64,000 bases of DNA from Dongiaceae bacterium (GTDB lineage Bacteria > Pseudomonadota > Alphaproteobacteria > Dongiales > Dongiaceae): the NCBI GenBank assembly GCA_040878185.1, contig JBBDMS010000021.1:52667-116666 (forward strand), in the 5' to 3' direction. The notes beneath the pieces are model-generated. The model saw only the letters and a program-made list of their open reading frames with translations. It had not been told where the DNA came from and did not search any database. Shown one piece after another: positions 13,874 through 36,245 of the stretch. The translations under genes and the position numbers were made by a program. The number at the start of each line of letters is the position of its first letter. Positions within the stretch are counted from its first letter, which is position 1.

Positions 13874-14202
13874 GAAATGGCCTGCAACGAGCGGGTCAGC
13901 CCGATCCACCTCCGCGTTCCGGCGCGGTGTCACGATATTGACCCGCCAATTGCGGCGGGGTTCCCGTATTCCCGCTTTCCCAGACGCGCCATTCACCGTT
14001 AGTCTTTGGAGAGATTGACTGATTCTTCCCGATTTGATCTCGCGCAATCGGGTAACCTTGGGCGATCCGGCCGGCGATGTTCGCGGAGTTCGCCACTTTC
14101 GCCCCAAAAGAGACCGATGAACGCAACCCGGCAGACCGGAATCCTTTCTGAAAGCGCACGTCGAACCGCGCCTTGCCTTTCGGCTTTTGGTAAACCCCGA
14201 TC

Positions 14203-15222: not shown

Positions 15223-15332
15223 GCTCGAAATCGCACAATCGCTGTGTTAGGTTCGCGCGGCCTGCGAACCTGTCCCACCACCGCGCTTCCGGCCGCGCCA
15301 CGCGGCCCGAACCCGATCGAGCCCGCCCATTA

Positions 15333-16700: not shown

Positions 16701-16833
16701 ACCGCGCGCATCGAGACAATCGCCCGGCGTCGCCCGGATGGGGGCCGATTGTTGCGATCCGGCCCCGGCTGGCGTATCTCCTGCCGACGTTCCCGCCGCC
16801 CGTCCGACGCGGCCCTGACCGGAGGCTGACCCC

Positions 16834-19933: not shown

Positions 19934-20009
19934 GCCTCGCCTTGTCCCTCGGGAACTCATTTGCTATGAGGCGGCCCGCCTTCTTCCCCCTCATGGACCC
20001 CTGCCTGGC

Positions 20010-21779: not shown

Positions 21780-21782
21780 TCC

Positions 21783-22733
21783 ATGGCCCGACTGGTCGCC
21801 GTAACGGGTGCGACCGGGTTTGTCGGCGGCCATGTCGCTCGTGCCTTCACCGATGCCGGCTGGCGTGTGCGTATTCTCGCGCGGCGCATTCCGCTCAGCC
21901 CGCAGCTCGCCGATCTGACCCCCGACCTCGTCCCCGGCTCGCTCGAAGACGAAGATGCGCTGCGGGCTCTGGTGCGCGGTGCCGATGCGATCGTCCACGC
22001 GGCGGGCTCGGTCAAGGCCCTCGATGCCGCCTCGTTCCATCGCGACAACGCGGACGGCACCGCGCGGATGGTTGCGGCGGCGCACGCTGCTGCGCCGGAA
22101 GCAAGATTCCTGCTGATCTCGTCGCTATCGGCGCGCGAACCGGCCTTGTCGCCCTATGCGGCGAGCAAGCGCGCGGGTGAACGGGCGCTCGAAACCGGCG
22201 GCGCCAGTCTCGACTGGACGATCCTGCGACCGCCCGTGGTGTACGGGCCGGGCGACCGGGAAATGCTGCCGTTCTTCCGCATGGCGGCCAACGGCATGTT
22301 GGCGGCACCGGACAATGGCGCCGCCCGTCTTTCGCTCATCCATGCCGCCGATCTGGCACGAGCCTGCGTCGCGATCGTCGAGCGCCGCGAGTGGCGGCAC
22401 GCAACGATCGAGATCGACGATGGCCATCCCCGCGGCTATGGCTGGCCGGACATTGCGGACGCTCTCGCCGCCGCTGTCGGCCGGCCGGTTCGGCTGCGGC
22501 GGTTACCGCGCTGGCTGTTCGACGCGGTCGCCACCGTGAGCGCCGGCTGGGCCGAAATGACAAAATTGCCGGCCATGGTGACGCCCGGCAAGGTTCGCGA
22601 GCTGTTTCATCCGGACTGGATTTCCCGCGTGCCCGAATTTCCGCAAAATCTGGGCTGGTTGCCGCAATTCACTGTTAACAAAGGTTTTTCTGTGACGGCG
22701 GCGGCGTATCGCGGGCTCGGTCTGCTGCGATGA
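21783..22733 (+). CDS. NAD-dependent epimerase/dehydratase-family SDR (ceramide reductase CerR candidate)
   Basis: VTGATGFVGGHV Rossmann motif. Its position between the acyl-ACP ligase and ACP/Spt matches the Caulobacter ceramide locus (from memory). Confidence 0.7.
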   Translation: MARLVAVTGATGFVGGHVARAFTDAGWRVRILARRIPLSPQLADLTPDLVPGSLEDEDALRALVRGADAIVHAAGSVKALDAASFHRDNADGTARMVAAAHAAAPEARFLLISSLSAREPALSPYAASKRAGERALETGGASLDWTILRPPVVYGPGDREMLPFFRMAANGMLAAPDNGAARLSLIHAADLARACVAIVERREWRHATIEIDDGHPRGYGWPDIADALAAAVGRPVRLRRLPRWLFDAVATVSAGWAEMTKLPAMVTPGKVRELFHPDWISRVPEFPQNLGWLPQFTVNKGFSVTAAAYRGLGLLR

Positions 22734-22739
22734 ATCGAG

Positions 22740-22769
22740 TTGTAACAAAGGGTTACAATTCTTTATTTC
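22740..22769 (+). promoter_or_regulatory. perfect 7-bp inverted repeat TTGTAAC-N5-GTTACAA followed by a T-rich run, in an AT-rich island upstream of the ACP gene
   Basis: Read directly: ttgtaacaaagggttacaa ttctttatttc. Lies 7 nt after the SDR stop (22733). Either an operator or a weak intrinsic attenuator. Confidence 0.4.
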
Positions 22770-22869
22770 ACTAAACCCCTGACCTAATTGGAATCTACGG
22801 CTGTCCAGGCCACGACGCGCGTCGCGGTATTTGGATTCGTGGAGCGATCGAGTCGAGGCAGCGTTGAGA

Positions 22870-23121
22870 ATGGAAGTGGCCGAGTCTGGAACGTTCGAGC
22901 GGGTCGTGGAAGTTTTGCGACCGTTCCGGAAGAACGAGACCCCGATCGGACGGGGCAGCGATCTGGCCGACGATCTTCGCCTCGACTCGCTGGCGGTGAT
23001 GGACCTGATGATGGAACTCGAGGAACGGTTCGACATCACCATCCCATTGAATGCCGTTCCGGAAATCCGGACGGTCGGCGATCTGGCCGATTTCGTCGCA
23101 AAGCAGAAGGCAGAGGGATAA
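22870..23121 (+). CDS. acyl carrier protein (dedicated, sphingolipid-associated)
   Basis: Phosphopantetheine site DDLRLDSLAVMDLMMELEE. ATG at 22870 gives an 83-aa protein; the track's TTG at 22831 is probably too long. Confidence 0.85.
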   Translation: MEVAESGTFERVVEVLRPFRKNETPIGRGSDLADDLRLDSLAVMDLMMELEERFDITIPLNAVPEIRTVGDLADFVAKQKAEG

Positions 23122-23125
23122 GACG

Positions 23126-24343
23126 ATGGGTTTGTTCGACCGGTTCAAGGGCCTGAAGGCCGCCCATAGCGCCGCAAAGTCCTGCGGCGACGATCCATTT
23201 GCCATTCGCATGGACGAAGTGCTCTCGCCGACCGAAGCGATGATCGAAGGCCGGCACACCATCCTCGCCGGCACCAACAATTACCTCGGCCTCACCTTCG
23301 AGCCGTCCTGCGTCGCCGCCTCGGCCGAGGCGGTGCGCACGCACGGCACCGGCACCACCGGTTCGCGCGTCGCCAACGGCTCCTATGCCGGGCACAAGGC
23401 GCTTGAGGATTCGATTGCCGATTTCTTCGGTCGCAAGCACGCCATGGTTTTCACCACGGGCTACCAGGCCAATCTCGGCATCATCGCCACATTGGCCGGC
23501 CCACAGGACTATCTGATCATCGATTCCGACTCGCATGCGAGCATCTACGATGCGACGCGGCTGAGCAGCGCCACCGTTCTGCGCTTCAAGCATAACGATC
23601 CGGACGATCTCGACCGCCGCCTCTCGAAGCTCGGCAACGAGGCGGTCAACAAAGTGATCGTCGTCGAGGGTATCTACAGCATGCGCGGCGATATCGCGCC
23701 GCTGGCCGAGTTCGCGGCGGTGAAGCGCAAGCATGGCGCCTATCTCGTCGTCGACGAGGCGCATTCGATGGGCGTCATGGGCGATACCGGTCGCGGTGCG
23801 GCAGAGTTCTACGGCGTCGAGGCCGATGTCGATTTCATCGTCGGCACGTTCTCTAAGAGCCTGGGCGCGATCGGCGGCTATTGCGTCTCCGATCATCCGG
23901 AGTTCGATATCCTGCGCGTCGCCTGCCGGCCCTACATGTTCACGGCCTCGCTGCCGCCGTCGATCGTGGCCTCGGTCGCGGCCTCGCTCGAAGTGATGAA
24001 GGAGCGGCCGACATTGCGCGACAATCTCTGGGCCAATGTGAACCAGCTTTACGGCACGCTGCAGCGGCGTGGGTTCGTGCTCGGGCCGCACAAGAGCCCC
24101 GTCGTGGCGGTGCATCTGCCCGATCCGGCCAGTGCGATCCAGGTCTGGCACGAGCTGCTGCTGGCCGGCGTCTATGTGAACCTGACATTGCCGCCGGCGA
24201 CGCCGAACAATATAGCGCTGCTTCGCTGTAGCGTCTGTGCGGCGCATACGAGCGAGCAGCTTGCCGTCGTTGCGGACCGTCTGACCGAGATCGCCGAACG
24301 GCATGGCGTGATCGGCAGCATGCGCATGGCCGCCGCCGGCTGA
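23126..24343 (+). CDS. spt: serine palmitoyltransferase (alpha-oxoamine synthase family, PLP-dependent)
   Basis: AOS-family motifs: GTGTTGSRVANG, DSDSHASI, VDEAHSMG, PLP-lysine GTFSKSLG. ATG at 23126 lies 4 nt after the ACP stop, preceded by GAGGGA. Confidence 0.85.
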   Translation: MGLFDRFKGLKAAHSAAKSCGDDPFAIRMDEVLSPTEAMIEGRHTILAGTNNYLGLTFEPSCVAASAEAVRTHGTGTTGSRVANGSYAGHKALEDSIADFFGRKHAMVFTTGYQANLGIIATLAGPQDYLIIDSDSHASIYDATRLSSATVLRFKHNDPDDLDRRLSKLGNEAVNKVIVVEGIYSMRGDIAPLAEFAAVKRKHGAYLVVDEAHSMGVMGDTGRGAAEFYGVEADVDFIVGTFSKSLGAIGGYCVSDHPEFDILRVACRPYMFTASLPPSIVASVAASLEVMKERPTLRDNLWANVNQLYGTLQRRGFVLGPHKSPVVAVHLPDPASAIQVWHELLLAGVYVNLTLPPATPNNIALLRCSVCAAHTSEQLAVVADRLTEIAERHGVIGSMRMAAAG

Positions 24344-24372
24344 CGGCACGCTCACCACTGTTCGATAAGCAG

Positions 24373-24420
24373 ACGGCCGCCTCCGGGCGGCCGTTTCGCG
24401 TTCCGCCCGCGTCGGAACGC
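24373..24420. terminator. two tandem GC-rich hairpins between convergent genes (spt and the Tam41-like gene)
   Basis: ACGGCCGCC-tccg-GGCGGCCGT followed by TTT (24373-24396), and GCGTTCCG-N7-CGGAACGC (24398-24420). Confidence 0.55.
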
Positions 24421-24425
24421 CGTGG

Positions 24426-25382
24426 TCAGCGGAAGGCGCCGGCGCGGTAGAAGCGCCACAGCAATATCGGCGCCGCGAGGATCGGGTGGCGTCGCTCCCA
24501 GGGGCTCACCGGCGGCCGCACGGCGGCATGGCGCTCGACCTTCCAGAGCGCGTAATCGACCGCGCCGTCGACCGTAAAGACCGCCTTGATGAGACGCAGC
24601 AGGTTCAGGCTCTTGCCCGCGACACGCCGGCGGATCCACGCGCGACGGCCGGCTTTGCGCGCCGATGCATCGAGCGGATTGCGATAGAATCCGACATCGT
24701 GGGCAAAGGCGGCGTCGCCTAACGTTGCCGCCGTCAGCGCCTCATAGCGGTCGCGATCCGCCGCGACGATCAGGATGGCACGATCGCGGCCCCGTTCGCT
24801 GCGCAACTCGGCGCCATAGGTCGCGCGAAATCCCGTCTCCCACAGCCGTTCAGCGGTGAAGCGGTCGCCGACCAGTGGAAGGCTCGCCGCCACAAACGTT
24901 TCCACCGCATCGGCACAGGCGGCTTCGAACGCCCTTCCCACGGCCTCGTCCCGTGTGACAACAAGCCGTGCCGGCTGTGCGAACCGGGCCCAGAGCGCGC
25001 TGGTCTTGCTTCGCGGCCCGCATCCGCGCGCGAACTGCGCCAGCGAGATCACGGCATATTTGGCGCGCAGAGGCACGCCATTGATGATCGTTTCGACAAA
25101 GAACACGTTCGGCGGCAGAAGGCGATTGAAACGCGCGATCCAGGGTCGGTCGGGATAGGCGCTGCGGTAATCGTCCACCAGCAGATAGAAGTCGAGCAGG
25201 CTGTCGGGACTCGAGAGTGCTGCTTCGCCGCTGCGCAGGCAGGAGCCGTAGAACAGAACGGCCGCACTGCCGCTTCCATGTCGCTGCATCACCTGCGTCG
25301 CGAGGTCGCGCACCAATGCCGGAACCGGAAGCGCCAGTTCGTCGCGTACGATGGCCGAAACCTGCTGCATCGCCTGCTGCAT
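24426..25382 (-). CDS. Tam41/Mmp37-like nucleotidyltransferase-fold protein (putative lipid-phosphate cytidylyltransferase)
   Basis: NTase-like VLFYGSCLRSGE...DFYLLVDDY. RAKYAVISLAQF and LWARFAQPARLV resemble the Tam41 KYGV..(L) and LY.AGR..KPV segments. By-eye call that needs HMM confirmation. Confidence 0.45.
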   Translation of the reverse strand: MQQAMQQVSAIVRDELALPVPALVRDLATQVMQRHGSGSAAVLFYGSCLRSGEAALSSPDSLLDFYLLVDDYRSAYPDRPWIARFNRLLPPNVFFVETIINGVPLRAKYAVISLAQFARGCGPRSKTSALWARFAQPARLVVTRDEAVGRAFEAACADAVETFVAASLPLVGDRFTAERLWETGFRATYGAELRSERGRDRAILIVAADRDRYEALTAATLGDAAFAHDVGFYRNPLDASARKAGRRAWIRRRVAGKSLNLLRLIKAVFTVDGAVDYALWKVERHAAVRPPVSPWERRHPILAAPILLWRFYRAGAFR

Positions 25383-25405
25383 CGAAGGTCTTTCCGACGG
25401 GTCGG

Positions 25406-26365
25406 TCAGAGCCGCGCGAAGGTCAACGCATGCCCGCTTTCAACGATGATCGGCTCGCCCGGCACCGGATCGATCCGCTCACCGTCGAACAACAAAGGCG
25501 CGTCGGCCTCGATGGCGAGGCGAACGACGCGGCCGCTACGATAGCCTGCATCCTTCATCCAGTCGCGCGGCGTCCCGCGGATCAGCGGCAAAAGGGCCGA
25601 AAGGAAGCGGCGCGGCGGGCTCTGAACCCATGTCCATCGAATCGGCGCCTCGCCGGCGCCCCAGAACGGATCGGCCCCGAGAATGAGGCCCGGCAAGGTT
25701 GTCGCGAGAAAGAGATAGCACTCACCGCTGGCTATCTCCGCATTGTCACCGACCAACCGAATGCGTGTTCCCTGTTTTCGCCCGGCAAAAACGGTGTGCA
25801 CGATCAGCATGAACGCCGCCGCTGCAGCCGCGGTCGACTGGGCAAAACCGACCGGGTGAACGCGCCGGCGCGCCAGCTGCGTCGTATTGTAAAACGCAGC
25901 GCCGCCGAGCAGCAGACCGTACTGGATATCGGCATTCGCCCCGGCCCGAACCGACAGGACCGGATGCGTCAGCAGATCGAGCGGACGCCCTGCATCGCGC
26001 CGCTGCAACAGCGCCGTGAGCCCGAAATCGGGCTTGCCTGGAATACCGAGCCGATGACCGGTGACGTTCGTCATGCCGCCGGCCAGCACGGCGAGAGGCG
26101 GCGTGATGGCAAAGGGATTACGGCCGATCAGTGCCGTCATCGTTGCCTGCACGGTGCCATCGCCACCGGAAACCGCCAGCAAGGTCGCGCCAGCCGCGGC
26201 GAATTCGTCCAGCACCGCCGGAATGTCTCCAATATGCTCGATCTCGCGCGTCAGCACGCGCTGCGCCGGGCGATAGACCGCGCGCACGCGCTCGAGCCGC
26301 TCGCGGTTGCGCCGGCTGCGCGGGTTGACGATCAGCCCGATCGGACCGCTGAAGACGCCGTTCAT
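25406..26365 (-). CDS. diacylglycerol/sphingosine-kinase-family lipid kinase (ceramide kinase candidate)
   Basis: DAGK catalytic motif LLAVSGGDGTV and LAVLAGGMTN. ATG at 26365 forms an ATGA overlap with the upstream gene's stop. The 533-aa track ORF is an upstream over-extension. Confidence 0.75.
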   Translation of the reverse strand: MNGVFSGPIGLIVNPRSRRNRERLERVRAVYRPAQRVLTREIEHIGDIPAVLDEFAAAGATLLAVSGGDGTVQATMTALIGRNPFAITPPLAVLAGGMTNVTGHRLGIPGKPDFGLTALLQRRDAGRPLDLLTHPVLSVRAGANADIQYGLLLGGAAFYNTTQLARRRVHPVGFAQSTAAAAAAFMLIVHTVFAGRKQGTRIRLVGDNAEIASGECYLFLATTLPGLILGADPFWGAGEAPIRWTWVQSPPRRFLSALLPLIRGTPRDWMKDAGYRSGRVVRLAIEADAPLLFDGERIDPVPGEPIIVESGHALTFARL

Positions 26366-27522
26366 GCCGTCTCCGTCAGCCAGGATCGCAACGCGCCGTT
26401 GCGCCGCTTCGCGAGCACCGCCTGCCCGATCCGCACCAGATGGAACAGCAGCGAAAGGATCGTCCAAATCGCAACGGCGATGAATCCTTCCGCCGGCCGG
26501 TCGAACAGGATCGCGAGCGTCAGGATGGCGAGGTTGGGATTGCGCCGCGCGGTGATCGTGCGGAACCAGTAATCGACCGGCCGCCAGATATGAATTTCGA
26601 TACCGAAGCGCGCCATGAAGAATCCTTCTTCGGCGCGTCCGAGCACATAGCCGGCGACGATTACCCAGAGCGCGGGCAATAGCCATTCGCCCAGTTCGGG
26701 CGATACCGGCACAGTCGCCAGCCCGACATACCAGGCCCAGTACCAGAAAGGTGGATGGATAAGATCGATGCCATGATCGAACACCTCGCCCATTTTGGTC
26801 GAGGTGAGCGTAACGCGGGCGAGCTTGCCATCGACCGTGTCGAGGAACGTCATTCCCCAGGCGGCGACCAGACCGAGCGCGAACTGCCCGGTCCAGAACA
26901 GCCAGAATGCGGCGATCACCAGCAACAGGCTGACGAACGTCACCGCGTTGGGCGAAATGCCGAGCGCGCTGCACCAGCGCGTCACCTGGCGCGCCGGCCA
27001 AGGCCATAGATATTTGGTTACGAAATCGGTCGCGCCTTTGTACGCGCCCGAGAAACTCGCGCGTTCGAGAACGTCGCGCGGCGTGCCGTCGAGCGGCAGC
27101 AGATATGGCGTCGCGCGCTTGCGCAGGGTCGCATCGTAGGAGCCGGCCAGTTCCACCGGTCCAAGCCGTTCGAGCCCGGCCCCGCGCACGACCCCGTCCA
27201 GGTCGATCTCGCCGGAAGCACCAGCGGCGGCGGCTCCGGCCCTCACATGCGCGGCAACGAGTTTTGAACGGTCCGCCGGATCGACCAGCGCCCGGCCCGG
27301 TTGCCCGATCAGCGCCCGGATGATGGATTCGTCATAGAGATAGTCCGTGCGAAGCAGGAGCAGGCCGCCCGCCGACGCCGCGCCAACGGTCGAATCGATC
27401 CCCGCGCGCAGCAAGGCGCGGCGCAGCCGCTCGGCCCCGGTTAACCCCCAGAGCCGTCGTCCGGCGGAACCGAGCAACCGAACTGCGGGTTTATCCGCGT
27501 TGCGGGGGTGTGAATCTGTCAT
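26362..27522 (-). CDS. CDP-alcohol phosphatidyltransferase-family membrane protein with an N-terminal ~170-aa soluble extension
   Basis: Signature DTVDGKLARVTLTSTKMGEVFDHGIDLI (D-x2-DG-x2-AR-x8-G-x3-D-x3-D) and multiple TM helices. ATG at 27522, or TTG at 27540. Confidence 0.8.
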   Translation of the reverse strand: MTDSHPRNADKPAVRLLGSAGRRLWGLTGAERLRRALLRAGIDSTVGAASAGGLLLLRTDYLYDESIIRALIGQPGRALVDPADRSKLVAAHVRAGAAAAGASGEIDLDGVVRGAGLERLGPVELAGSYDATLRKRATPYLLPLDGTPRDVLERASFSGAYKGATDFVTKYLWPWPARQVTRWCSALGISPNAVTFVSLLLVIAAFWLFWTGQFALGLVAAWGMTFLDTVDGKLARVTLTSTKMGEVFDHGIDLIHPPFWYWAWYVGLATVPVSPELGEWLLPALWVIVAGYVLGRAEEGFFMARFGIEIHIWRPVDYWFRTITARRNPNLAILTLAILFDRPAEGFIAVAIWTILSLLFHLVRIGQAVLAKRRNGALRSWLTETA

Positions 27523-27595
27523 GAGAGAATCTGGCCGCAATCCGGGGATGAGTTTGAAGGCCGCATGGGCCGCCGCTTGACCGAACCGGCCGGCC

Positions 27596-28579
27596 TTGGG
27601 ACAAGACCAGCCGACCCGCTCTTATAACCGCCCACTGGACTCCCGCCAATTGTTCACCCTGGCCCATCTTTCCGATCCGCATTTGGCCGGCTGGCCCCTG
27701 CCCGGCCTGCGCGCGATCGCCAACAAGCGGGCCTTCGGCCTTCTGTCCTGGCAATTGCGCCGGCGGCGCATCCATCTGTCGAGCGTGCTCGCCGCTCTTT
27801 GCGCGGATCTTCGGAAGGCGGCCCCCGATCACACGGTCATTACCGGCGATATCGTCAATATCTCGCTGCCCGAAGAGTTCGCGCGCGCGACCCAATGGCT
27901 GGGCGCGTTCGGGACACCCGAGGCGTTGACGGTGATCCCGGGCAATCACGATGCGTATATCGACCTGCCCTGGGACGAGACGATCGGCCACTGGCGATGT
28001 TACATGCGCGACGAACCGGCAGCGAGCGCGATCGGGAAGCCGTTCGAGGGGCCCGACGACTTCCCGTTCGTGCGGCGTCGCGGCCGGATCGCTCTCGTGG
28101 GCACGTCGAGCGCCTGCGCGATGCCGATCGGCAGCGCGGCCGGCCGCCTCGGTGCCCCGCAGATCGAACGACTGCGCCATCGGCTCGACGAACTCGGCAA
28201 GGAAAATCTGTTCCGGGTCGTGCTGATCCATCATCCGCCGTTCGAGGATCGCCATCATCGCCGCAAGGAACTCGAAGATATCGTCGAGCTGCGCGCCGCG
28301 ATTGCCGCGAGCGGCGCCGAACTGGTCCTGCATGGGCACACACACCGTTCGAGCCTGAACCGCATCGCCGTGCCGGATGGCACGGCGCCCGTCATCGGCG
28401 TCGCTTCAGCATCGGCTCGTGCCTGGGCCAACAAGGATCCGGCGCGCTATCATCTTTACCGCATCGAACCCGCCGGCGATGGCTGGCGGGTGGAAGTTGA
28501 GGTCCGCACCGTCACCGTCACGCTCGATCGATTCGAACGGACCGGTGGTTTCCGACTGGATGTCCCGCTGGCCGCATAA
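27596..28579 (+). CDS. calcineurin-like metallophosphoesterase
   Basis: LSDPHL, ITGDIVN, GNHD, IHHPP, LHGHTHR motifs. TTG start (uncertain). Confidence 0.75.
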   Translation: MGQDQPTRSYNRPLDSRQLFTLAHLSDPHLAGWPLPGLRAIANKRAFGLLSWQLRRRRIHLSSVLAALCADLRKAAPDHTVITGDIVNISLPEEFARATQWLGAFGTPEALTVIPGNHDAYIDLPWDETIGHWRCYMRDEPAASAIGKPFEGPDDFPFVRRRGRIALVGTSSACAMPIGSAAGRLGAPQIERLRHRLDELGKENLFRVVLIHHPPFEDRHHRRKELEDIVELRAAIAASGAELVLHGHTHRSSLNRIAVPDGTAPVIGVASASARAWANKDPARYHLYRIEPAGDGWRVEVEVRTVTVTLDRFERTGGFRLDVPLAA

Positions 28580-28649
28580 AATCGGCAGGCCGGGCGGAAC
28601 GCGTCAACCTTCCGGCCCGTGCTAGGTTGCGGTCGAACCAAGGAATGAG

Positions 28650-29099
28650 ATGGCCGACGCCGGCATCAACGCGACCATGAAGACATTCGGCCATCCGGAT
28701 ACGGTTCTGGCCGAATATCCCCATTGGGTGGTCCTGCTTCGCCCGCAGCAGGCGACGCTTGGTGCACTGGTGCTCGCCGCGCGCGGCCCGGCGACGCGCT
28801 TTTCCGATCTCGACGCGGCCGCCATGGCGGGATTACACAATGCAATCGCCGACATCGAGCGGACGCTCATGTCCTTGTTCACCTACGACAAGATCAACTA
28901 TCTGATGCTGATGATGGTCGATCCGCATGTGCATATGCATGTGATTCCCCGCTATGCCGCGAAACGCGCGTTCGAAAGCGTCGAGTTTCTGGATCCGGGC
29001 TGGCCGCGCACGCCCGATCTCGCGCATGCGACCACTGTCGACGATGCGTTGCGGCAACGCCTGGCGACCATGCTGCGCGATGCATGGCCGCGGCGCTGA
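28650..29099 (+). CDS. HIT-family (histidine triad) nucleotide hydrolase/transferase
   Basis: Histidine triad DPHVHMHVIPR. AAGGAA RBS upstream of the ATG. Confidence 0.7.
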   Translation: MADAGINATMKTFGHPDTVLAEYPHWVVLLRPQQATLGALVLAARGPATRFSDLDAAAMAGLHNAIADIERTLMSLFTYDKINYLMLMMVDPHVHMHVIPRYAAKRAFESVEFLDPGWPRTPDLAHATTVDDALRQRLATMLRDAWPRR

Positions 29100-29105
29100 T
29101 CGACG

Positions 29106-30296
29106 ATGACCCTGCTCGATCGCTATATCCTCAGCCGCATCATGTGGCCGCTGTTCGGCACGGTGGCGATCGCGCTGATGGCGCTGCTGCTGGAGCGGAT
29201 GGTGCGGCTGCTCGACTTCGTCGTCGCAAAGGGCGGCCCGATCATCTTCGTGCTGCGGATGCTGGCCAATCTCATCCCGCATTATCTCGGCCTCGCACTG
29301 CCGCTCGCCTTCTTCATCGGCATCATTCTGGCGATCAGCCGCCTCAGCGCCGACAGCGAGATCGACGCGATGAACGCGACCGGCGTCTCGTTGCATCGGC
29401 TGGTGGCGCCGATCATGCTGGTCGCGATCATGCTGGTCGCCTGCGGCAGCATCATCTTCGGGTTCCTTCAACCCTATACCCGCTACGCCTATCGCGCGCT
29501 GGTCTATGTGGTGACCGAAACCGCGTGGGAATCGGCCCTCGAACGCGGCTCATTCTTCACCGGGTTCGGCAATTTCACGATCATGGCCAACGACATCGCG
29601 GATGGCGGCCGAGTGCTGAGTGGGATTTTCGTGCATGAGGAACGCCCGTCTGGCGGTTCGATCACGACGACCGCGGAGACGGGTCGCGTGTTTCGCTCGA
29701 CCGACGATCTTGCGTTGGTGCTCCGCCTCGAGAACGGGATTCGTGTCGATGCCGGTCTGATCGGCAGTGAGGCGACGGTTCTGTCCTTTGACTCACTCAC
29801 GCTGCCGCTTGACGATTCGCTCGGGCCGAGTCCGTTCCGCATGCGCGGCGATTCCGATCGCGAGATGACTATTCCCGAATTGTGGAACGCGATCGAGAAC
29901 CCGCCACCCGATATCGACAAAGTGCGCTTCGAGACGGAACTGCATGCCCGCGTCGTGCGAACCCTGTCGTTTATTTTCCTGCCGCTGCTGGCAGCCCCGC
30001 TGGCGATGACGACGCGGCGCAGCCGGCGCGGCGTCAGCCTCGGCAGCGGCATCGTCATATTGCTGATCTACCACTACCTGCTGCAGCTCGGCGAAGGGCT
30101 GAGCGATCAGGGCCGCCTCTCGCCCTGGATCGCGCTCTGGACGCCGTTCTTCGTTTTCCTGACTCTCAGCACTTGGTGTTTCTGGGTAACCAGCGTGCGG
30201 CCAGGTTCGAACCCGCTCAATTGGCTGCTCAGCGGCCTCGACGATGTTTACGGAAGCATCATCTCGTTCGGCCAACGCCGGCGGGAGGCGACATGA
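29106..30296 (+). CDS. lptF: LPS export ABC transporter permease LptF
   Basis: YjgP/YjgQ family: MTLLDRYILSRI..., six TM segments and a periplasmic beta-jellyroll region. Confidence 0.8.
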   Translation: MTLLDRYILSRIMWPLFGTVAIALMALLLERMVRLLDFVVAKGGPIIFVLRMLANLIPHYLGLALPLAFFIGIILAISRLSADSEIDAMNATGVSLHRLVAPIMLVAIMLVACGSIIFGFLQPYTRYAYRALVYVVTETAWESALERGSFFTGFGNFTIMANDIADGGRVLSGIFVHEERPSGGSITTTAETGRVFRSTDDLALVLRLENGIRVDAGLIGSEATVLSFDSLTLPLDDSLGPSPFRMRGDSDREMTIPELWNAIENPPPDIDKVRFETELHARVVRTLSFIFLPLLAAPLAMTTRRSRRGVSLGSGIVILLIYHYLLQLGEGLSDQGRLSPWIALWTPFFVFLTLSTWCFWVTSVRPGSNPLNWLLSGLDDVYGSIISFGQRRREAT

Positions 30297-31387
30297 CCTG
30301 GACGCTGACGCGCTACATATCGCGCCTCTTTCTCGGGAACCTGACCGCCATCGTGATCGGCTTTGCCGGGTTGCTGCAGCTGCTCGATCTGCTGAACAAC
30401 GCCGACCGGCTGTTCGCCCGGCACGGCGACAGCCTCTGGGTGCTCGCACGCTATGCGATGCTGCGCATGCCGGAAGTGTTCGGTTTCATACTGCCCTTCG
30501 CGACCCTGATCGCAACATTGCTGACGCTGGCACGCCTCGCGCAGAACAGCGAGATCCTCGCCGCCAAGGCGGCGGGACTTTCCTTTTACCGGATCCTGCT
30601 CTGCTTCCTGCCGGCGGCCGCTCTGGTGGCGGTGGTGAATTTCTACGTCGTCGATCGGGCGACGCCGCTCACCCAGCGCACGCTGATCGACTGGGATGCG
30701 GAAGCAGATTCTCTGTCCGACCAGCCGGCCGCGGACACCAGCGAAGGCGTATGGATCCGCGACGGGCTGTCGCTGGTTCGGGTTTCCCTGGTTCTCAATC
30801 AGGGCCGCGAGCTGCATGACGTCACGTTTTTCGTCCGCGACGAAGACGGCAATCTCGCCAAGCGCATCACCGCCGACGTCGCACTCTATCTCGAGAACGG
30901 CCGCTGGCAGCTCTACGACGTGGAAACACTGGTTATGGAGCGGCATGCCGGCGGCGAGTTCACGCGTCAGGCGACCGATGTGTGGGAGGGCACGCTGGTG
31001 CCCGGTCACTACGCCGATATCGTCGCCCCACCCACGAGCCTGACGCTGGATCAGCTTGAAGCCTTCACGCAAGCCGAAGGCGAAATCGGCAACCGGCCGG
31101 ACTATTACTATGAGACCTGGCTGCACAAGCGATACGCCGTGCCGGTCGCGGTGTTCATCATGGTGATCCTCGCAGCCCCCATGGCCCAGACGCTGCGGCG
31201 GAACCAGCGCATGGCGATGGGCCTCGCCGCCGGTGTCGGCATGGGGTTCCTCTATTTCGTCACCGACGGGGTGTGTCAGGCGCTTGGCGAGACGGGGGCC
31301 ATTCCGGCAGCCGTAGCGGCCTGGAGCCCGGGGCTCCTGTTTCTCAGCTTCGGGCTGGCGGGGTTGATCCGGATCGAAGGCTACTAG
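30293..31387 (+). CDS. lptG: LPS export ABC transporter permease LptG
   Basis: MTWTLTRYISRLFLGN.... ATGA overlap with the lptF stop. The track ORF from 29882 is over-extended. Confidence 0.8.
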   Translation: MTWTLTRYISRLFLGNLTAIVIGFAGLLQLLDLLNNADRLFARHGDSLWVLARYAMLRMPEVFGFILPFATLIATLLTLARLAQNSEILAAKAAGLSFYRILLCFLPAAALVAVVNFYVVDRATPLTQRTLIDWDAEADSLSDQPAADTSEGVWIRDGLSLVRVSLVLNQGRELHDVTFFVRDEDGNLAKRITADVALYLENGRWQLYDVETLVMERHAGGEFTRQATDVWEGTLVPGHYADIVAPPTSLTLDQLEAFTQAEGEIGNRPDYYYETWLHKRYAVPVAVFIMVILAAPMAQTLRRNQRMAMGLAAGVGMGFLYFVTDGVCQALGETGAIPAAVAAWSPGLLFLSFGLAGLIRIEGY

Positions 31388-31479
31388 CGGGCCGGTCGAA
31401 GGGCGAAAACCGCGACATTACAACGCGTTGTCGGTAGGGTGCCTTGCCGGAACCCCGGTCGAGAGCTAGATTGGGCGGC

Positions 31480-32259
31480 ATGAGCTTCTGGACTCGCACC
31501 CACAATCTTTCGCGCATGTCGCTCGGCGATCTGCTGCGCGTCTTCTTCACCTATCCGGCGGTCATCGCCTACCTGCTGTTCGGCATCGCCGCAGCAGCGG
31601 CCGCTGCCTATTTCTATCGGGCCGGCGACTGGCTCGGCGTCCTGGTCGCAATCGGCCTTGCGGTCGTCATCTATCCGCTGGTCTGGTACGTCCTGCATCG
31701 CTGGGTGCTGCACAGCCGCTATCTCTATCGTAGCCCGCTGACGGCCAAGACCTGGAAGCGTATCCATTTCGACCATCATCAGGATCCGTACGATCTACGC
31801 GTGCTGTTTGGCGCGCTGCATACAACGCTGCCGACGATCGCAATCGCAACGGCGCCGATCGGCTGGCTTGTCGGTGGCTGGAGCGGCGCCGCGGCCGCGC
31901 TGTCGACCGGATTGCTGACCACCTGCTTCTACGAGTTCTGCCATTGCGTGCAGCACCTCAATACGAAGCCCCGCACGACCTTCCTGCAGCACATCAAGCG
32001 CCTGCATCTCGCGCATCACTTCCACAACGAGCAGGGCAATTTCGGTATCACCAATTTCCTCTGGGACCGCTGGCTCGGCACTTTCTATGAATCGCCGCGC
32101 CAGGTGACGAAGAGCCCGACCGTGTTCAATCTCGGTTACACCGAGGAACAGGCCGCCATTTATCCGTGGGTGGCCGCACTCTCCGGCGGCACGCGCGGCG
32201 ACCAGAACCCGCGCCGCTTCCGTGTCGATCCCGACGTTCGGGGCGACCGTGCCGCCTGA
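31480..32259 (+). CDS. fatty acid hydroxylase superfamily (sterol desaturase-like) membrane di-iron enzyme; candidate sphingolipid/acyl hydroxylase
   Basis: His boxes HRWVLH, HFDHH, HLAHHFH. ATG at 31480. Confidence 0.7.
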   Translation: MSFWTRTHNLSRMSLGDLLRVFFTYPAVIAYLLFGIAAAAAAAYFYRAGDWLGVLVAIGLAVVIYPLVWYVLHRWVLHSRYLYRSPLTAKTWKRIHFDHHQDPYDLRVLFGALHTTLPTIAIATAPIGWLVGGWSGAAAALSTGLLTTCFYEFCHCVQHLNTKPRTTFLQHIKRLHLAHHFHNEQGNFGITNFLWDRWLGTFYESPRQVTKSPTVFNLGYTEEQAAIYPWVAALSGGTRGDQNPRRFRVDPDVRGDRAA

Positions 32260-32271
32260 GCGACACGCCGC

Positions 32272-33429
32272 TTGCCCACGTCTGCCGACATCCGCATCGT
32301 TCCGGCACAATCGAATCCGGCCCGTCGCGATTTCCTGAAACTGCCGCTGACGCTCTATGCCTGTGCTCCGGGCTATGCGCCCGGCCTGCTGATGGAGCGC
32401 AGGGCTGCGATCGACCCCGCCCGCAATCCCTTTTTCGAGCATGCCGAGGCGGCATTCTGGGTCGCCTATCGCGGCGACAAACCGGTCGGCCGCATCAGCG
32501 CGCAGGTCGATCGTCTCGCGCGCGAGCGATACGGCGCCGATCTCGGCCATTTCGGCTATCTCGATGCGATCGACGATCCGGCGGTGTTCGCGGCCTTGTT
32601 CGCAACGGCCGAGGATTGGCTGCGCGCGCGCGGCACGAAGCGCGTCCAGGGTCCGTTCAGCCTTTCTATCAATGAGGAAACCGGCCTGCTGGTCGACGGC
32701 TTCGATACCCGGCCGATGCTGATGATGAGCTATCACCCGTCGTTCGCGCGCGCCCATGTCGAAGCGAGGGGCTATGCCAAGGCGAAGGACGTCATCGCCT
32801 ATGACTATGACGTGACGCAGACGCTGCCGATCGACAGTATGCGTTTGATCGAGCGCGCGAAGGCCGATCTCGACATCCGGCTGCGGCCGCTCGACATGCG
32901 CCGCTATAACGAGGATCTGAGGATCATCCTCGACATCTTCAACGACGCGTGGGCGGACAATTGGGGCTTCATCCCGATGACCGAGGCGGAGGTCGCCCAC
33001 ACCGCGCACGAGATGCGGCAGATCATCGTGCCGGATCTGGTCTGGATCGCCGAAATCGACGGCGAACCGGTCAGCATGATCGTCTGCCTGCCCAACCTGC
33101 TCGAGGCGACGGCAGATCTCCGCGGCAGCCTGCTACCGTTCGGCTGGGCGAAACTGCTCTGGCGGCTCAAGGTCCGGGGGCTGCATACCGGGCGCGTGCC
33201 GCTGTTCGGCCTGCGCCGGCGCTATCACCGCTCGCCCTATGGCGCGGCCGTGATCTTCATGCTGCTCGATGCACTGCGACGAAGCGGCGTCGCACGCGGC
33301 ATCCGCAGCGCGGAGCTGTCCTGGATTCTCGAAGATAATTGGGCGATCCGATCGATCATCGAGCGTCTTGGCGGCCGACCGTACAAGACCTACCGCGTCT
33401 TTGAAAATACGCTCGCACCGCCATCATGA
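32272..33429 (+). CDS. large GNAT-fold N-acyltransferase (bacterial ceramide synthase bCerS candidate)
   Basis: TTG start. ~385 aa with tandem acyl-CoA N-acyltransferase-like halves (FWVAYRGDKPVGRISA..., LVWIAEIDGEPVSMIVCLPN...). Size and genomic context match the GNAT-type ceramide synthase of Caulobacter (from memory). Confidence 0.5.
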   Translation: MPTSADIRIVPAQSNPARRDFLKLPLTLYACAPGYAPGLLMERRAAIDPARNPFFEHAEAAFWVAYRGDKPVGRISAQVDRLARERYGADLGHFGYLDAIDDPAVFAALFATAEDWLRARGTKRVQGPFSLSINEETGLLVDGFDTRPMLMMSYHPSFARAHVEARGYAKAKDVIAYDYDVTQTLPIDSMRLIERAKADLDIRLRPLDMRRYNEDLRIILDIFNDAWADNWGFIPMTEAEVAHTAHEMRQIIVPDLVWIAEIDGEPVSMIVCLPNLLEATADLRGSLLPFGWAKLLWRLKVRGLHTGRVPLFGLRRRYHRSPYGAAVIFMLLDALRRSGVARGIRSAELSWILEDNWAIRSIIERLGGRPYKTYRVFENTLAPPS

Positions 33430-34223
33430 ACGAGCGGCTCACGGTGCTGCTGCTGGCGGGGTCGCGCGGGCCCGCCGATCCCGTTGCGCAAGCGGCCGAG
33501 GTGCCGGTCAAGGCTCTCGCCCCGGTGCGCGGGCGCGCCATGATCGAGCGCGTGGTCGATACGCTGCAGCGTTATGAGCGGATCGGCCGCATCGTCATCG
33601 CAACAGACGACCGGCCGGAAGCCGCGGCGCAGTTCGAGCGGCTGGCCCGCCGCGCCGGCGTCGAGCTGATGGCGCAGGCGCAGTCGCCGGCCGCAACCGT
33701 AAGCGCCGCCCTTGCGCATATCGGGGATGCTGGCTTTCCGATTCTGGTTACCACGGCGGATCATCCGCTGCTGACCGCCGACATGATCGAAACGCTGCTG
33801 AACGCCAGCCTGGCCGATGCCGACATCGCCGTTGCGCTCGCCGATGCGGACAATGTCGCCGCCGCATATCCCAACTCGATCCGCACGGTGCTGAAACTCG
33901 GATCGGGGCGATATTGCGGCTGCAATCTCTTCCTGCTGCAGCATCCGCGCGCCGGCGGCGCGATCGCGTTCTGGCGCAGGATGGAACGCAACCGGAAAAA
34001 GCCCTGGCGGCTCGCTGCGGCGATCGGCCCGAAGACGCTGATGCTCTATTTGCTGGGGCGTCTCGATCTAACGGCGGCCTTCGCGCGGCTCTCGGCGCTC
34101 AGCGCCAGCAATATCCAGCCGGTGATCCTGCCGCAGCCGGAAGCGGCGATCGATGTCGACAAACCGGCCGACCTCGCTTTGGCCGAGCGCATTCTCGCCG
34201 CACGCGAGCGACCCGAAAGCTAG
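33426..34223 (+). CDS. MobA-like NTP-transferase-fold nucleotidyltransferase
   Basis: LLLAGSRG...KAL, VTTADHPLL. ATGA overlap with the upstream GNAT stop. Confidence 0.55.
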   Translation: MNERLTVLLLAGSRGPADPVAQAAEVPVKALAPVRGRAMIERVVDTLQRYERIGRIVIATDDRPEAAAQFERLARRAGVELMAQAQSPAATVSAALAHIGDAGFPILVTTADHPLLTADMIETLLNASLADADIAVALADADNVAAAYPNSIRTVLKLGSGRYCGCNLFLLQHPRAGGAIAFWRRMERNRKKPWRLAAAIGPKTLMLYLLGRLDLTAAFARLSALSASNIQPVILPQPEAAIDVDKPADLALAERILAARERPES

Positions 34224-34244
34224 GTCGTCGCGAACGAGTCTCGG

Positions 34245-34970
34245 CTACCAGCCGCGCACCATCCGTTCGGCCTGTTGCAGATCTTCGTGGAAGTCAATCT
34301 CGCCCCATTGCAGGCCTTCGATCGAGGCGGTCTCGACCGTGCCCTCGCGCGCAAGGATGTCGATGACCTTGAGATACCACCATTTGAGGCCGTCGGGCGT
34401 GTGCATGGTGCGATCGATCGCCTCGGCGAAAAGACGTGGCCCTGCGCCGCGAAAGAGGAGCATGCCGATCGATTCCCCGTTGACCCGATCGAGCAGCAGC
34501 GTCTTGCCGATCTCACGCAACCGCGTGCCCTCGGTGCGGACCTTCATATCGTCGGCATCGTACTCGGCCTTGCGATCGATCGTGACGGTGATCGGTGCCG
34601 CCGGGCTTGCGAGCAGGCGCGCCAGCACCGCCGGCTCGAACAATGTGTCGCCGTTCAGGATGATGAAATCGCGATCCATCTCACCGCGCGCGAGCCAGCA
34701 GCTTCCGAGATTGTCGGCGACGTTGAAGAACGGATTGAAAATCGTCCGGATCCGGAGCGACGGGCCGGCGAGCGTCGCGAGATGCGCCTCGACCAGAGCC
34801 GCCTGGAAACCGAGCACGACCGCGATCTCGTCGACGCCGCCGGCGGCGAGCTGCTTCACCTGCCACTCGATGACCGTGCGCGGGCCGACCGGCAGCATGC
34901 ATTTCGGTCGGTCCTTGGTCAGCGGCAGCAGGCGCGAGCCCTGGCCGGCACTGAGGATGAGGGCGCGCAT
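34245..34970 (-). CDS. LicC/sugar-phosphate-type nucleotidyl(cytidylyl)transferase
   Basis: MRALILSAGQGSRLLPLTKDRPKCML (G-x-G-x-R-L signature) and ILNGDTLF. Confidence 0.7.
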   Translation of the reverse strand: MRALILSAGQGSRLLPLTKDRPKCMLPVGPRTVIEWQVKQLAAGGVDEIAVVLGFQAALVEAHLATLAGPSLRIRTIFNPFFNVADNLGSCWLARGEMDRDFIILNGDTLFEPAVLARLLASPAAPITVTIDRKAEYDADDMKVRTEGTRLREIGKTLLLDRVNGESIGMLLFRGAGPRLFAEAIDRTMHTPDGLKWWYLKVIDILAREGTVETASIEGLQWGEIDFHEDLQQAERMVRGW

Positions 34971-35220
34971 GAGCGGGAGCGTGGAGCCTTTCGCTATCGT
35001 CGCCGGGCAGGGATTTCCGGGACCGGATCGGCCGAAGGCCGGGTGGCGGCGGCGAAGATGGCCAATGGGCCAGGACCCGTCAACCCGAGGCGCCGCACAA
35101 GCCTCACGCGAGACCGCAGACCGCCCGGAACGGCCGCTGGAAGCGCCACGGTTGGCAGCCTTGGCAGGCCCAAACCGGGTTGCTATAACGCGCCGCGCCT
35201 CCTGATATGGAAGCTACTGT

Positions 35221-35295
35221 TCCCCGGTAGCTCAGCGGTAGAGCAACCGGCTGTTAACCGGTTGGTCGCTGGTTCGAATCCGGCCCGGGGAGCCA
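35221..35295 (+). tRNA. tRNA-Asn: tRNA-Asn (anticodon GTT), CCA encoded
   Basis: Cloverleaf folded by hand: acceptor TCCCCGG/CCGGGGA, D stem GCTC/GAGC, anticodon stem ACCGG/CCGGT with loop CTGTTAA, T arm GCTGG-TTCGAAT-CCGGC, discriminator G, then CCA. Confidence 0.9.
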
Positions 35296-35304
35296 ATATC
35301 CATC

Positions 35305-35341
35305 AAAGGGCTTAGGTCGAAGCGACCTAAGCCCTTTTGCT
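35305..35341. terminator. bidirectional intrinsic terminator hairpin
   Basis: AAAGGGCTTAGGTC-gaagc-GACCTAAGCCCTTT followed by TGCTTT. Sits between the tRNA-Asn and the convergent minus-strand gene ending at 35379. Confidence 0.7.
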
Positions 35342-35378
35342 TTGGCGGTACGCGAATCGCGCAGGCGCTCGTCCATCG

Positions 35379-36245
35379 TCACGGTTTCCTGTGCTGCTGT
35401 AGATGGAGCAACCAGCCGAGCAGCGCGAGAATGAGGCCAGCGATCGCCGCGATGACGCCGGTGATGGCCATCAGCAACGGCAGCATGCCGGCTTCGACGT
35501 CGAGCGCTTCGAGGCCGAATCCGATCGCCGCGACGACGGCGGAAACAAGGAAGGCGATCAGACCCCAGCGGATTCTCTTGCGCCAGATATCAGGCTGCAC
35601 GACGATCTCGCGCCGCTCCACTTTCTGGAAATGCGCGAGAACCTTCTCCGCGTCGGCCGTCGCCGTTGGTGCGATCGGGACGCGAATAACGCCGGCATGC
35701 TGATGCACCATGATGACGGTCACGTTCGACATGGTGGTCATGCGTGTACCGAATTCGATGCTCGCAGGACTGCCGGGTATTATCTGGACGCCCGCGAAGC
35801 GGTACATGCCGGTGGTCACGATCGGGAAGTAACTGCCGTCGATCAGGACACCGTCGGTCGTGAAAATGACCTCGACCCCGTCTGGCCGCGATTTCCGCGA
35901 CGGTTTGTAGTCATTCCCATAGCCGGCACCGAGCGCGTTTCGTTCCTTGTTGTACGCGCGAAACGCATCGAAACGATCCGCCGGCACGATCCAGCGCGCG
36001 AGGCGATTGTCTCCGCGGCGCACCGACTGGGCCATCTTCATCCCCTTGAGGGAGAGGACGAACATGGCGAGGGAAATGATCCCGACGACAAGGCCGGCGC
36101 CGATCGCGGCGCCGGTGGCGCCGGTCTCATGCCCGAGCGCGTTCATCTCGGCAATGCCCCAGAGAACGCTAACGGTCGAGGCAACAACCAAAATGACGCA
36201 GATGATGGCATTCCGCCCGGGATTGCTCAGACCGCTGTTTTTCAT
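35379..36245 (-). CDS. hypothetical membrane protein (2 N-terminal + 2 C-terminal TM helices around a soluble beta-rich domain)
   Basis: Hydrophobic segments IICVILVVASTVSVLWGI, AIGAGLVVGIISLAMFVL, WGLIAFLVSAVVAAIGF, LLMAITGVIAAIAGLILALLGWL. No recognisable catalytic motif. Confidence 0.5.
   Translation of the reverse strand: MKNSGLSNPGRNAIICVILVVASTVSVLWGIAEMNALGHETGATGAAIGAGLVVGIISLAMFVLSLKGMKMAQSVRRGDNRLARWIVPADRFDAFRAYNKERNALGAGYGNDYKPSRKSRPDGVEVIFTTDGVLIDGSYFPIVTTGMYRFAGVQIIPGSPASIEFGTRMTTMSNVTVIMVHQHAGVIRVPIAPTATADAEKVLAHFQKVERREIVVQPDIWRKRIRWGLIAFLVSAVVAAIGFGLEALDVEAGMLPLLMAITGVIAAIAGLILALLGWLLHLQQHRKP

Follow-up and report, generated by a model that had tools for sequence, protein, structure and literature searches.

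We analysed a 64,000-nucleotide stretch of DNA from a Dongiaceae bacterium (assembly GCA_040878185.1, contig JBBDMS010000021.1, positions 52,667 to 116,666 of the forward strand), called the window below, around four genes at 31480-34970: a membrane hydroxylase, a 385-residue GNAT-type acyltransferase and two nucleotidyltransferases, which we term NTase 1 and NTase 2 (Table 1). These genes are the distal, ceramide-synthase end of an anionic sphingolipid locus with one extra gene, the hydroxylase, and do not constitute a new system. Judged by synteny and sequence identity, the genes in the roughly 17 kb from 18155 to 34970 follow the order of the Caulobacter crescentus locus for ceramide and ceramide diphosphoglycerate (CPG2), CC_1166-CC_1152. 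We consider it likely that the window carries a CPG2-type locus to which a hydroxylase has been added and whose product probably replaces the lipopolysaccharide (LPS) of the outer leaflet.

In the published Caulobacter map, CC_1152 is CpgD, CC_1153 stands next to CC_1154, which is bCerS, CC_1155 and CC_1156 are LptG2 and LptF2, CC_1157 and CC_1158 follow, CC_1159-1161 are CpgA, CpgB and CpgC, and CC_1162 is Spt, beyond which lie ACP, CerR and acyl-ACP synthetase (PMC11324152; bioRxiv 10.64898/2026.04.12.717747; PMC9393093). All proteins of the window cluster were searched against 80 genomic loci encoding relatives of the GNAT protein, and two of these, from Caulobacter sp. Root343 (L067) and Caulobacter sp. 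32-67-35 (L050), served as reference for the identities. In Root343, an unbroken run of eleven genes with the CerR-like gene at one end and CpgD at the other keeps the order and orientation of the window, with identities of 30-60% (Spt 60%, CDP-alcohol transferase 48%, GNAT 48%, NTase 1 40%, NTase 2 53%), and this order agrees with the published CC_1164-CC_1152 map (PMC11324152; bioRxiv 10.64898/2026.04.12.717747). The loci of Caulobacter sp. 32-67-35, Brevundimonas and Phenylobacterium agree with this. Pfam confirms the family of every gene of the window locus except the 318-residue cpgC-like gene, for which it has no match. An earlier annotation made from the letters of the DNA without database searches (the sequence-only reading) had missed the gene-for-gene correspondence that the eleven-gene synteny reveals.

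Set against the whole Caulobacter locus CC_1152-CC_1168 (CCNA_01210-01226), the window agrees in gene families, their order and their orientation across the span bounded by the acyl-ACP synthetase and the convergent cpgD. It differs in carrying a hydroxylase of family PF04116 between lptG2 and bcerS, whereas Caulobacter reportedly uses the unlinked DesA-family protein CC_0202, and in having an MsbA-like ABC exporter in the place of CC_1166. The genomes differ as well: Caulobacter has both LPS-type LptFG and lipid A genes, whereas our searches found neither in the window genome.

LptF/LptG type and lipid A genes

The genome is 3.68 Mb in size and 97.6% complete. The lptF and lptG genes of the window are its only two matches to PF03739. 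LpxC, LpxB, LpxK, the LpxA C-terminal domain and WaaA were not found anywhere in the genome by searches that gave the expected matches in control genomes, and tblastn of the genome with LpxC and LpxK from a genome of the same family gave no match. LptD is present. In a maximum likelihood tree of 44 LptF/G sequences, which resolves four well-supported clades, the window LptF groups with Caulobacter LptF2 (support 100/98) and its LptG with LptG2 (95/94). Every sole LptF/G copy from a genome lacking LpxC groups with LptF2/LptG2 and the cluster-linked copies and away from the LPS-type copies. The sequence-only reading had overlooked the sphingolipid-type nature of this adjacent pair. We also considered that the two genes might be housekeeping LPS genes lying here by chance, and rejected this on the strength of the tree. 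Because the searches turned up no genes for lipid A, and LptD and the sphingolipid-type LptF2G2 are all that is kept, the cluster probably makes the main lipid of the outer membrane's outer leaflet, in place of LPS.

The same state recurs within the family. LpxC and LpxK are both missing in 14 of the 24 Dongiaceae genomes sampled, many of them 99-100% complete, and these 14 have exactly two LptF/G matches each (three fragments in one broken assembly). Where LpxC and bCerS are both present, family genomes show four to six LptF/G matches, and the single genome with LpxC but without bCerS has two. Vineibacter terrae CC-CFT640, which is in culture, likewise carries one LptFG pair, and LpxC and LpxK were not found in it; Caulobacter sp. 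Root343 and Niveispirillum served as LPS-positive controls and behaved accordingly. How many times lipid A was lost cannot be read from the RpoB tree. We note one 'Dongia sp.' metagenome-assembled genome (that of locus L052) with three tandem LptF/LptG genes (C12:123937-127395), a divergent LpxC-like match (E 1e-67) and no LpxK, which may represent an intermediate or unusual state.

A point of comparison is provided by the Sphingomonadaceae (S. wittichii; Rhizorhapis, L083), which share with the window the series lptF-lptG-hydroxylase-385-residue GNAT, the Rhizorhapis hydroxylase being 60% identical. As described for Sphingomonas, LpxC, LpxB and WaaA are absent there, LptD is kept and a single LptFG pair remains, as in the window genome. 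However, the window genome belongs to the Dongiaceae and its cluster has a complete head-group set of the CPG2 type, including cpgA, cpgD and the phosphoesterase, whereas sphingomonads are known for glycosphingolipids whose genes are scattered over several regions. A literature search on the lipids of Dongiaceae or Vineibacter, and on natural lipid A loss beyond the known cases, found no relevant report among the papers covered.

Ceramide synthase and the nucleotidyltransferases

The 385-residue protein is hard to place by domain searches: its Pfam match is weak (Acetyltransf_1, E 3.5e-4), its sequence has no match in the PDB, and NCBIfam holds no model for bacterial ceramide synthase (bCerS). 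Its AlphaFold2 model (predicted local distance difference test, pLDDT, 88.6) has an all-globular alpha/beta fold, and the best Foldseek matches are the tandem-GNAT structures 2wpw, 7q3a, 5kf1 and MshD (E 1e-11 to 1e-14), so that the 'double GNAT' label given to it from the letters is borne out by the model. The sequence-only reading had also put the protein forward as a ceramide synthase, to be checked by comparison with bCerS. That comparison supports it, with 48% identity to the syntenic Root343 gene over residues 3-381 (tblastn, E 1e-115) and 50% to that of Caulobacter sp. 32-67-35. In the literature, bCerS proteins are recognised by a BLAST E of at most 1e-30 with coverage of at least 50% (PMC11334938); the values here lie within these bounds when Caulobacter-genus proteins are used in place of the NA1000 sequence. 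A locus with spt, acp and cerR is a further mark; here the contig carries, 8-12 kb upstream of the GNAT gene and arranged as in Caulobacter, the genes for Spt, ACP, a CerR-like and an acyl-ACP synthetase-like protein. Homologues number more than 7,900, some of them named 'dATP pyrophosphohydrolase' or GNAT. By sequence and position, then, the protein is the bCerS orthologue.

Its structural neighbours, which include MshD, Eis and glucosamine N-acetyltransferases, could instead be taken to indicate an unrelated aminoglycoside or peptide acetyltransferase lying by coincidence in a sphingolipid neighbourhood, next to a MobA-like gene for the molybdenum cofactor. MobA and MocA are indeed among the weak NCBIfam matches of NTase 1, and some sources name its homologues MocA or CobY. 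We regard this explanation as highly improbable, since identity to the structural neighbours is only 7-15%, NTase 1 scores 40.8 bits against MobA (NF001457; cut-off 164) and 33.2 against MocA (TIGR03310; cut-off 186), the two genes stay beside lptF2G2 and spt across dozens of genera, and their Caulobacter orthologues have published sphingolipid phenotypes.

NTase 2 begins with SAGQGSRL, and this N-terminus, together with the NTP_transferase match, agrees with its earlier description as a LicC-type nucleotidyltransferase with a G-x-G-x-R-L loop. It is 53-54% identical to its convergent counterparts at this position in the genus Caulobacter. CpgD is a CTP:phosphoglycerate cytidylyltransferase that forms CDP-glycerate, and it holds CTP, Mg and glycerate through G12, R16, K26, T88 (backbone), N90, T93, N110, G111, D112, S170 and W201 (PMC12275187, PMC13228409). 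All of these are identical in NTase 2 save T93, which is Ser and keeps the hydroxyl, and T88, a backbone contact only, which is Ala; the glycerate-contacting N90, N110 and S170 are thus kept. A full-length NCBIfam match is to the inositol-1-phosphate cytidylyltransferase (IMPCT) domain (E 1e-15), the fold family by which CpgD was identified. With IMPCT and LicC (PDB match 1jyk, E 1.6e-10), NTase 2 shares the G-x-G-x-R-L loop, the Lys and the N-G-D motif; however, it scores far under the family cut-offs, and orthology predicts phosphoglycerate as its substrate and not inositol phosphate or phosphocholine. We conclude from the sequence comparison that NTase 2 is the CpgD orthologue, a predicted CTP:phosphoglycerate cytidylyltransferase and not a CDP-alcohol or NDP-sugar enzyme. 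Phosphoglycerate was among the substrates proposed from the letters for the two enzymes, and it fits the CpgD orthology, whereas the CDP-alcohol and NDP-sugar proposals do not. Nor are the two enzymes open-ended sources of activated head-group or sugar donors, both being orthologues of Caulobacter genes already linked to CPG2.

The CpgD-like and CC_1153-like enzymes might activate another head group in this lineage (phosphoglycerol, phosphoinositol or a phosphosugar acid), in which case the lipid would not be CPG2. Identity to Caulobacter-genus CpgD is only 54%, Thr93 is replaced, no substrate is assigned to CC_1153, and the sulfotransferase, methyltransferase and nonulosonate genes upstream in the window hint at further decoration. 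We suggest that this is unlikely: Asn90, Asn110, Ser170 and the other active-site residues are kept, and the full CPG2 gene set (kinase, CpgC-like, CpgA-like, phosphoesterase and CpgD) is present in the Caulobacter order.

NTase 1 is, on sequence and position, the orthologue of CC_1153/CCNA_01211, with 40% identity to the gene directly downstream of bcerS in Root343. Its Caulobacter counterpart is genetically needed for CPG2 and not for ceramide phosphoglycerate (CPG), and has no assigned reaction (PMC11324152). The AlphaFold2 model is of high confidence (pLDDT 93.5). Calling the protein a MobA-like NTP transferase was right as to the NTP_transf_3 fold but not as to membership of the MobA family, whose cut-off it does not reach. 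A molybdenum-cofactor role was likewise rejected, given that both the MobA and MocA scores are far under their cut-offs and that the gene travels with bCerS loci. Searched against the PDB, the family profile matches best, and by a wide margin, the uncharacterised TTHA0179 of Thermus thermophilus (2dpw, E 1e-34), then IspD, KdsB and GlmU, and it matches the CofC-type 3-phosphoglycerate guanylyltransferase weakly. The phosphoglycolipids of Thermus and Deinococcus contain glyceroyl-alkylamine, which may be a lead for the TTHA0179-like CC_1153 family.

Gene content across loci bears on the role of both enzymes. Enough flanking sequence was available for 44 of the 80 loci, which are mutually related, and the counts should be taken as description only. 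In 26 loci the CpgA-like gene is accompanied by a CpgD-like gene, in four it occurs alone, CpgD alone occurs in none, and 14 have neither; the HIT gene follows the CpgA-like gene with the same figures (26 both, four CpgA-like alone, no HIT alone, 14 neither). NTase 1 lies beside bCerS in 41 of the 44, including 12 that lack the CpgA-like, CpgD-like and HIT genes altogether. Because NTase 1 persists in loci without CpgA and CpgD, the role of CC_1153 probably extends beyond the second phosphoglycerate, and the distribution suggests one closer to ceramide synthesis or to the first head-group step. The co-occurrence of the other genes is consistent with CpgD supplying CpgA and hints at a part for the HIT protein in that step. 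The literature regards CC_1157, the HIT protein, as unrelated to sphingolipid synthesis; Zymomonas is reportedly without CC_1159 and CC_1157 together, in agreement with the co-occurrence of HIT and CpgA. The twelve reduced clusters (L013, L015, L021, L026, L038, L041, L044, L058, L065, L066, L076 and L078) keep the kinase, the CpgC-like gene and the phosphoesterase.

A hydroxylase between lptG2 and bcerS

The sole Pfam match of the hydroxylase is FA_hydroxylase (PF04116, E 2.3e-19), and its sole PDB relative by sequence is yeast Scs7 (4zr0/4zr1; phmmer, E 3e-10). Three His boxes had been counted in it from the letters; there are four (HRWVLH at 73, HFDHH at 96, HCVQH at 155 and HLAHHFH at 176-182), and they pair with those of Scs7 (HRWVLH with HRFLFH, HFDHH with HGCHH, CHCVQH with CHFFLHH, HLAHH with HLEHH), the second His of the Scs7 'LHH' pair being Leu in the hydroxylase. 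PF04116 membership and the di-metal His motif are the marks of FA2H/Scs7-type enzymes, and both are found here. With Scs7, human FA2H and the myxobacterial FA2H-like enzymes, the protein shares PF04116, four transmembrane-type hydrophobic stretches and the aligned His motifs. It differs from them in being embedded in a sphingolipid operon and in its N-terminus: the 259-residue protein begins with the membrane domain and Pfam finds no N-terminal cytochrome b5 domain, for which reason we do not file it as a canonical FA2H. To judge from its sequence, it corresponds to the catalytic half of FA2H/Scs7 only.

A homologue lies directly upstream of bCerS on the same strand in 26 of the 80 loci, as counted by tblastn without composition-based statistics; with them the figure is 9 of 80, an undercount since the membrane protein is penalised. 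Five of the loci added in this way were checked with Pfam and confirmed, and weak matches of 25-35% elsewhere in 17 loci were taken as noise. Cultured bacteria among the 26 are Niveispirillum irakense, Nitrospirillum amazonense, Tateyamaria pelophila, Vineibacter terrae and Marinimicrococcus flavescens. Among the sampled Dongiaceae genomes, 19 of 24 have the hydroxylase, always adjoining bCerS. Close homologues are known from the myxobacterium Corallococcus (63% identity), where the gene stands alone, and from the sphingomonad Rhizorhapis (60%), where R. suberifaciens has it in the arrangement of the window. Functional FA2H-like 2-hydroxylases of myxobacteria are tied to sphingolipid formation in the passage of PMC10002949 that cites Ring et al. 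(2009).

In some other lineages, the slot between lptG2 and bcerS is taken up by a further CDP-alcohol phosphotransferase or by a Wzx/MatE-like flippase (L003:8700-9860, L023:8760-9980, L028:8258-9466, L048:7516-8829 and L029:8384-9964). The extra CDP-alcohol phosphotransferase adjoins bCerS directly or, in L048, lies upstream of a hydroxylase. Accessory sphingolipid genes seem to settle preferentially at this position.

Hydroxylated ceramides had been predicted from this gene, and the prediction is plausible, the sole solved relative being a ceramide fatty-acid 2-hydroxylase. We think it fairly likely, from sequence and context, that the enzyme 2-hydroxylates the amide-linked acyl chain of ceramide. 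In Caulobacter, hydroxylation of the CPG acyl chain is attributed to the unlinked CC_0202, and it decides polymyxin sensitivity. PF04116 spans base hydroxylases and desaturases as well as acyl 2-hydroxylases, and homologues are annotated as 'sterol desaturase/sphingolipid hydroxylase'; the protein might therefore act on the sphingoid base, as a Sur2-like C4-hydroxylase giving phytoceramide, or as a desaturase, and not on the N-acyl chain. We find this rather unlikely, though it deserves mention. All His motifs align with those of the acyl 2-hydroxylase Scs7, the sphingomonad orthologue, 60% identical, occupies the same position between lptG and bcerS, Caulobacter CPG is hydroxylated on its acyl residue, and the 63%-identical Corallococcus protein comes from a group with functional FA2H-like 2-hydroxylases. 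Sphingomonad glycosphingolipids are said, after work by Kawahara in 1991, to carry 2-hydroxymyristate on bases that are not 4-hydroxylated, which also counts against hydroxylation of the base.

Gene map, proposed pathway and meaning

The gene map (Table 1) was drawn from the open reading frame listing with codon-position GC (window G+C about 64%). The layout of the four genes had been read correctly from the letters, and all four open reading frames are in place: the hydroxylase TGA (32257-32259) lies 12 nucleotides before the TTG start of the GNAT gene at 32272, the GNAT stop (33429) and the NTase 1 ATG (33426) overlap by four nucleotides as ATGA, and NTase 2 converges on the operon with 21 nucleotides between the two stop codons. 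The hydroxylase ATG at 31480 shares its frame with a longer TTG open reading frame beginning at 31444. A promoter and terminator scan of 31300-35500 gave nothing useful.

Table 1. Genes of the sphingolipid locus, in window coordinates
Feature	Position	Strand	Basis
ABC exporter, acyl-ACP synthetase-like (AMP-binding), CerR-like reductase, ACP (22831-23121) and Spt; ceramide-synthesis core	18155-24343	+	Pfam, open reading frames
cpgC-like gene, 318 residues	24426-25382	-	No Pfam match; order as in Root343 (L067)
cpgB-like ceramide kinase	25406-26365	-	DAGK_cat; order as in L067
cpgA-like CDP-alcohol phosphotransferase	26362-27540	-	Pfam; order as in L067
Metallophosphoesterase (CC_1158-like) and HIT protein (CC_1157-like; HIT gene 28650-29099), opening the plus-strand array	27596-29099	+	Pfam; order as in L067
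lptF2-lptG2, sphingolipid-type Lpt permease pair	29106-31387	+	PF03739 twice
Scs7/FA2H-type di-iron membrane hydroxylase (predicted)	31480-32259	+	259 residues; PF04116, E 2.3e-19; Scs7 (4zr0/4zr1) best PDB match
bCerS orthologue by sequence (CC_1154/CCNA_01212 family), tandem-GNAT N-acyltransferase	32272-33429	+	385 residues; identity to Caulobacter-genus syntenic genes; AlphaFold2 fold
CC_1153/CCNA_01211-type nucleotidyltransferase (NTase 1)	33426-34223	+	265 residues; NTP_transf_3, E 2.1e-15
CpgD orthologue by sequence (CC_1152/CCNA_01210), predicted CTP:phosphoglycerate cytidylyltransferase (NTase 2)	34245-34970	-	241 residues; NTP_transferase, E 1.4e-12

Elsewhere in the locus, the cpgA-like and cpgB-like genes overlap in an ATGA at 26362-26365. 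The gene at 24426-25382 had been labelled Tam41-like; Pfam gave no match there to bear this out. The ACP gene (22831-23121) overlaps the longest Spt open reading frame (23051-24343), and the likelier Spt start is the ATG at 23126 (MGLFDRF...), right after the ACP stop. Upstream of the core, at 7623-10474 and 12980-18087, are genes for a NeuB-cupin fusion, a NeuA-like cytidylyltransferase, methyltransferases and two sulfotransferases, which may decorate the same lipid or a glycan. The NeuA-like gene, claimed from the letters alone, is real (CTP_transf_3, 9650-10474).

Several points weigh against the reading of the window as a CPG2-type locus with a hydroxylase whose product replaces LPS. Orthology was judged through Caulobacter-genus proteins at the same position and not through the C. 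crescentus NA1000 proteins, head-group analysis of such lipids is confined to Caulobacter, and Thr93 of CpgD is Ser in NTase 2. The absence of genes is inferred from a metagenome-type assembly that is 97.6% complete. The hydroxylase has no cytochrome b5 domain and no electron donor is encoded nearby, its regiospecificity is not fixed by sequence, and PF04116 also holds sphingoid-base C4-hydroxylases and desaturases. Moreover, a fatty-acid 2-hydroxylase cloned in Sphingomonas is a P450, CYP152B1 (PMC10002949), so the His-box enzyme is not the sole candidate for this activity.

Our proposed pathway is as follows. Spt, ACP and the acyl-ACP synthetase would, by orthology, form 3-ketosphinganine, which the bCerS orthologue would N-acylate in the cytoplasm before CerR reduces the product; this chemistry is known from Caulobacter and is assigned here by orthology. 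The Scs7/FA2H-type hydroxylase would then hydroxylate ceramide, with C-2 of its amide-linked acyl chain as the most likely site, filling the role reported in Caulobacter for CC_0202, which is an unrelated protein of the DesA family. The kinase and the CpgC-like protein would add the first phosphoglycerate. The CpgD orthologue would make CDP-glycerate from CTP and 2-phosphoglycerate, an activity shown for its Caulobacter orthologue, and the CpgA-like CDP-alcohol phosphotransferase would use it to add the second phosphoglycerate. NTase 1, coupled to bcerS, would contribute a putative nucleotidyltransferase step, probably beyond the second phosphoglycerate alone. The product, a predicted hydroxy-acyl ceramide (di)phosphoglycerate, would be exported through the LptF2G2 of the cluster and the retained LptD.

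The gene cluster itself adds one more instance of a system that work on Caulobacter has unravelled since 2019, and its annotation is routine. What is new is the lipid A result for this genome and its relatives, and we regard the genomic context as the most interesting aspect of the locus. On balance, we lean towards the view that lipid A has been naturally lost in lineages outside the Sphingomonadaceae, namely about half of the sampled Dongiaceae genera and Vineibacter terrae, with only LptF2G2 and LptD kept, and that the hydroxylase, bCerS, CC_1153-type and CpgD genes build an essential hydroxylated anionic ceramide phosphoglycerate in place of LPS. Such a loss may be the natural counterpart of the engineered lipid-A-free Caulobacter, and may have occurred more than once within one family. 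The conserved lptG2-hydroxylase-bcerS arrangement, present in about a third of the related loci and found in cultured Niveispirillum, Nitrospirillum, Tateyamaria, Vineibacter and sphingomonads, points to a specific enzyme as candidate ceramide acyl hydroxylase. If natural loss is the correct explanation, these bacteria would be natural experiments in swapping LPS for an anionic sphingolipid, with Vineibacter terrae as a cultured entry point. Three matters would then become testable in their wild-type cells: sphingolipid transport by LptF2G2, LptB and LptD, the functions of CC_1153 and the HIT protein, and whether lipids of the CPG2 type are enough to make up an outer membrane.

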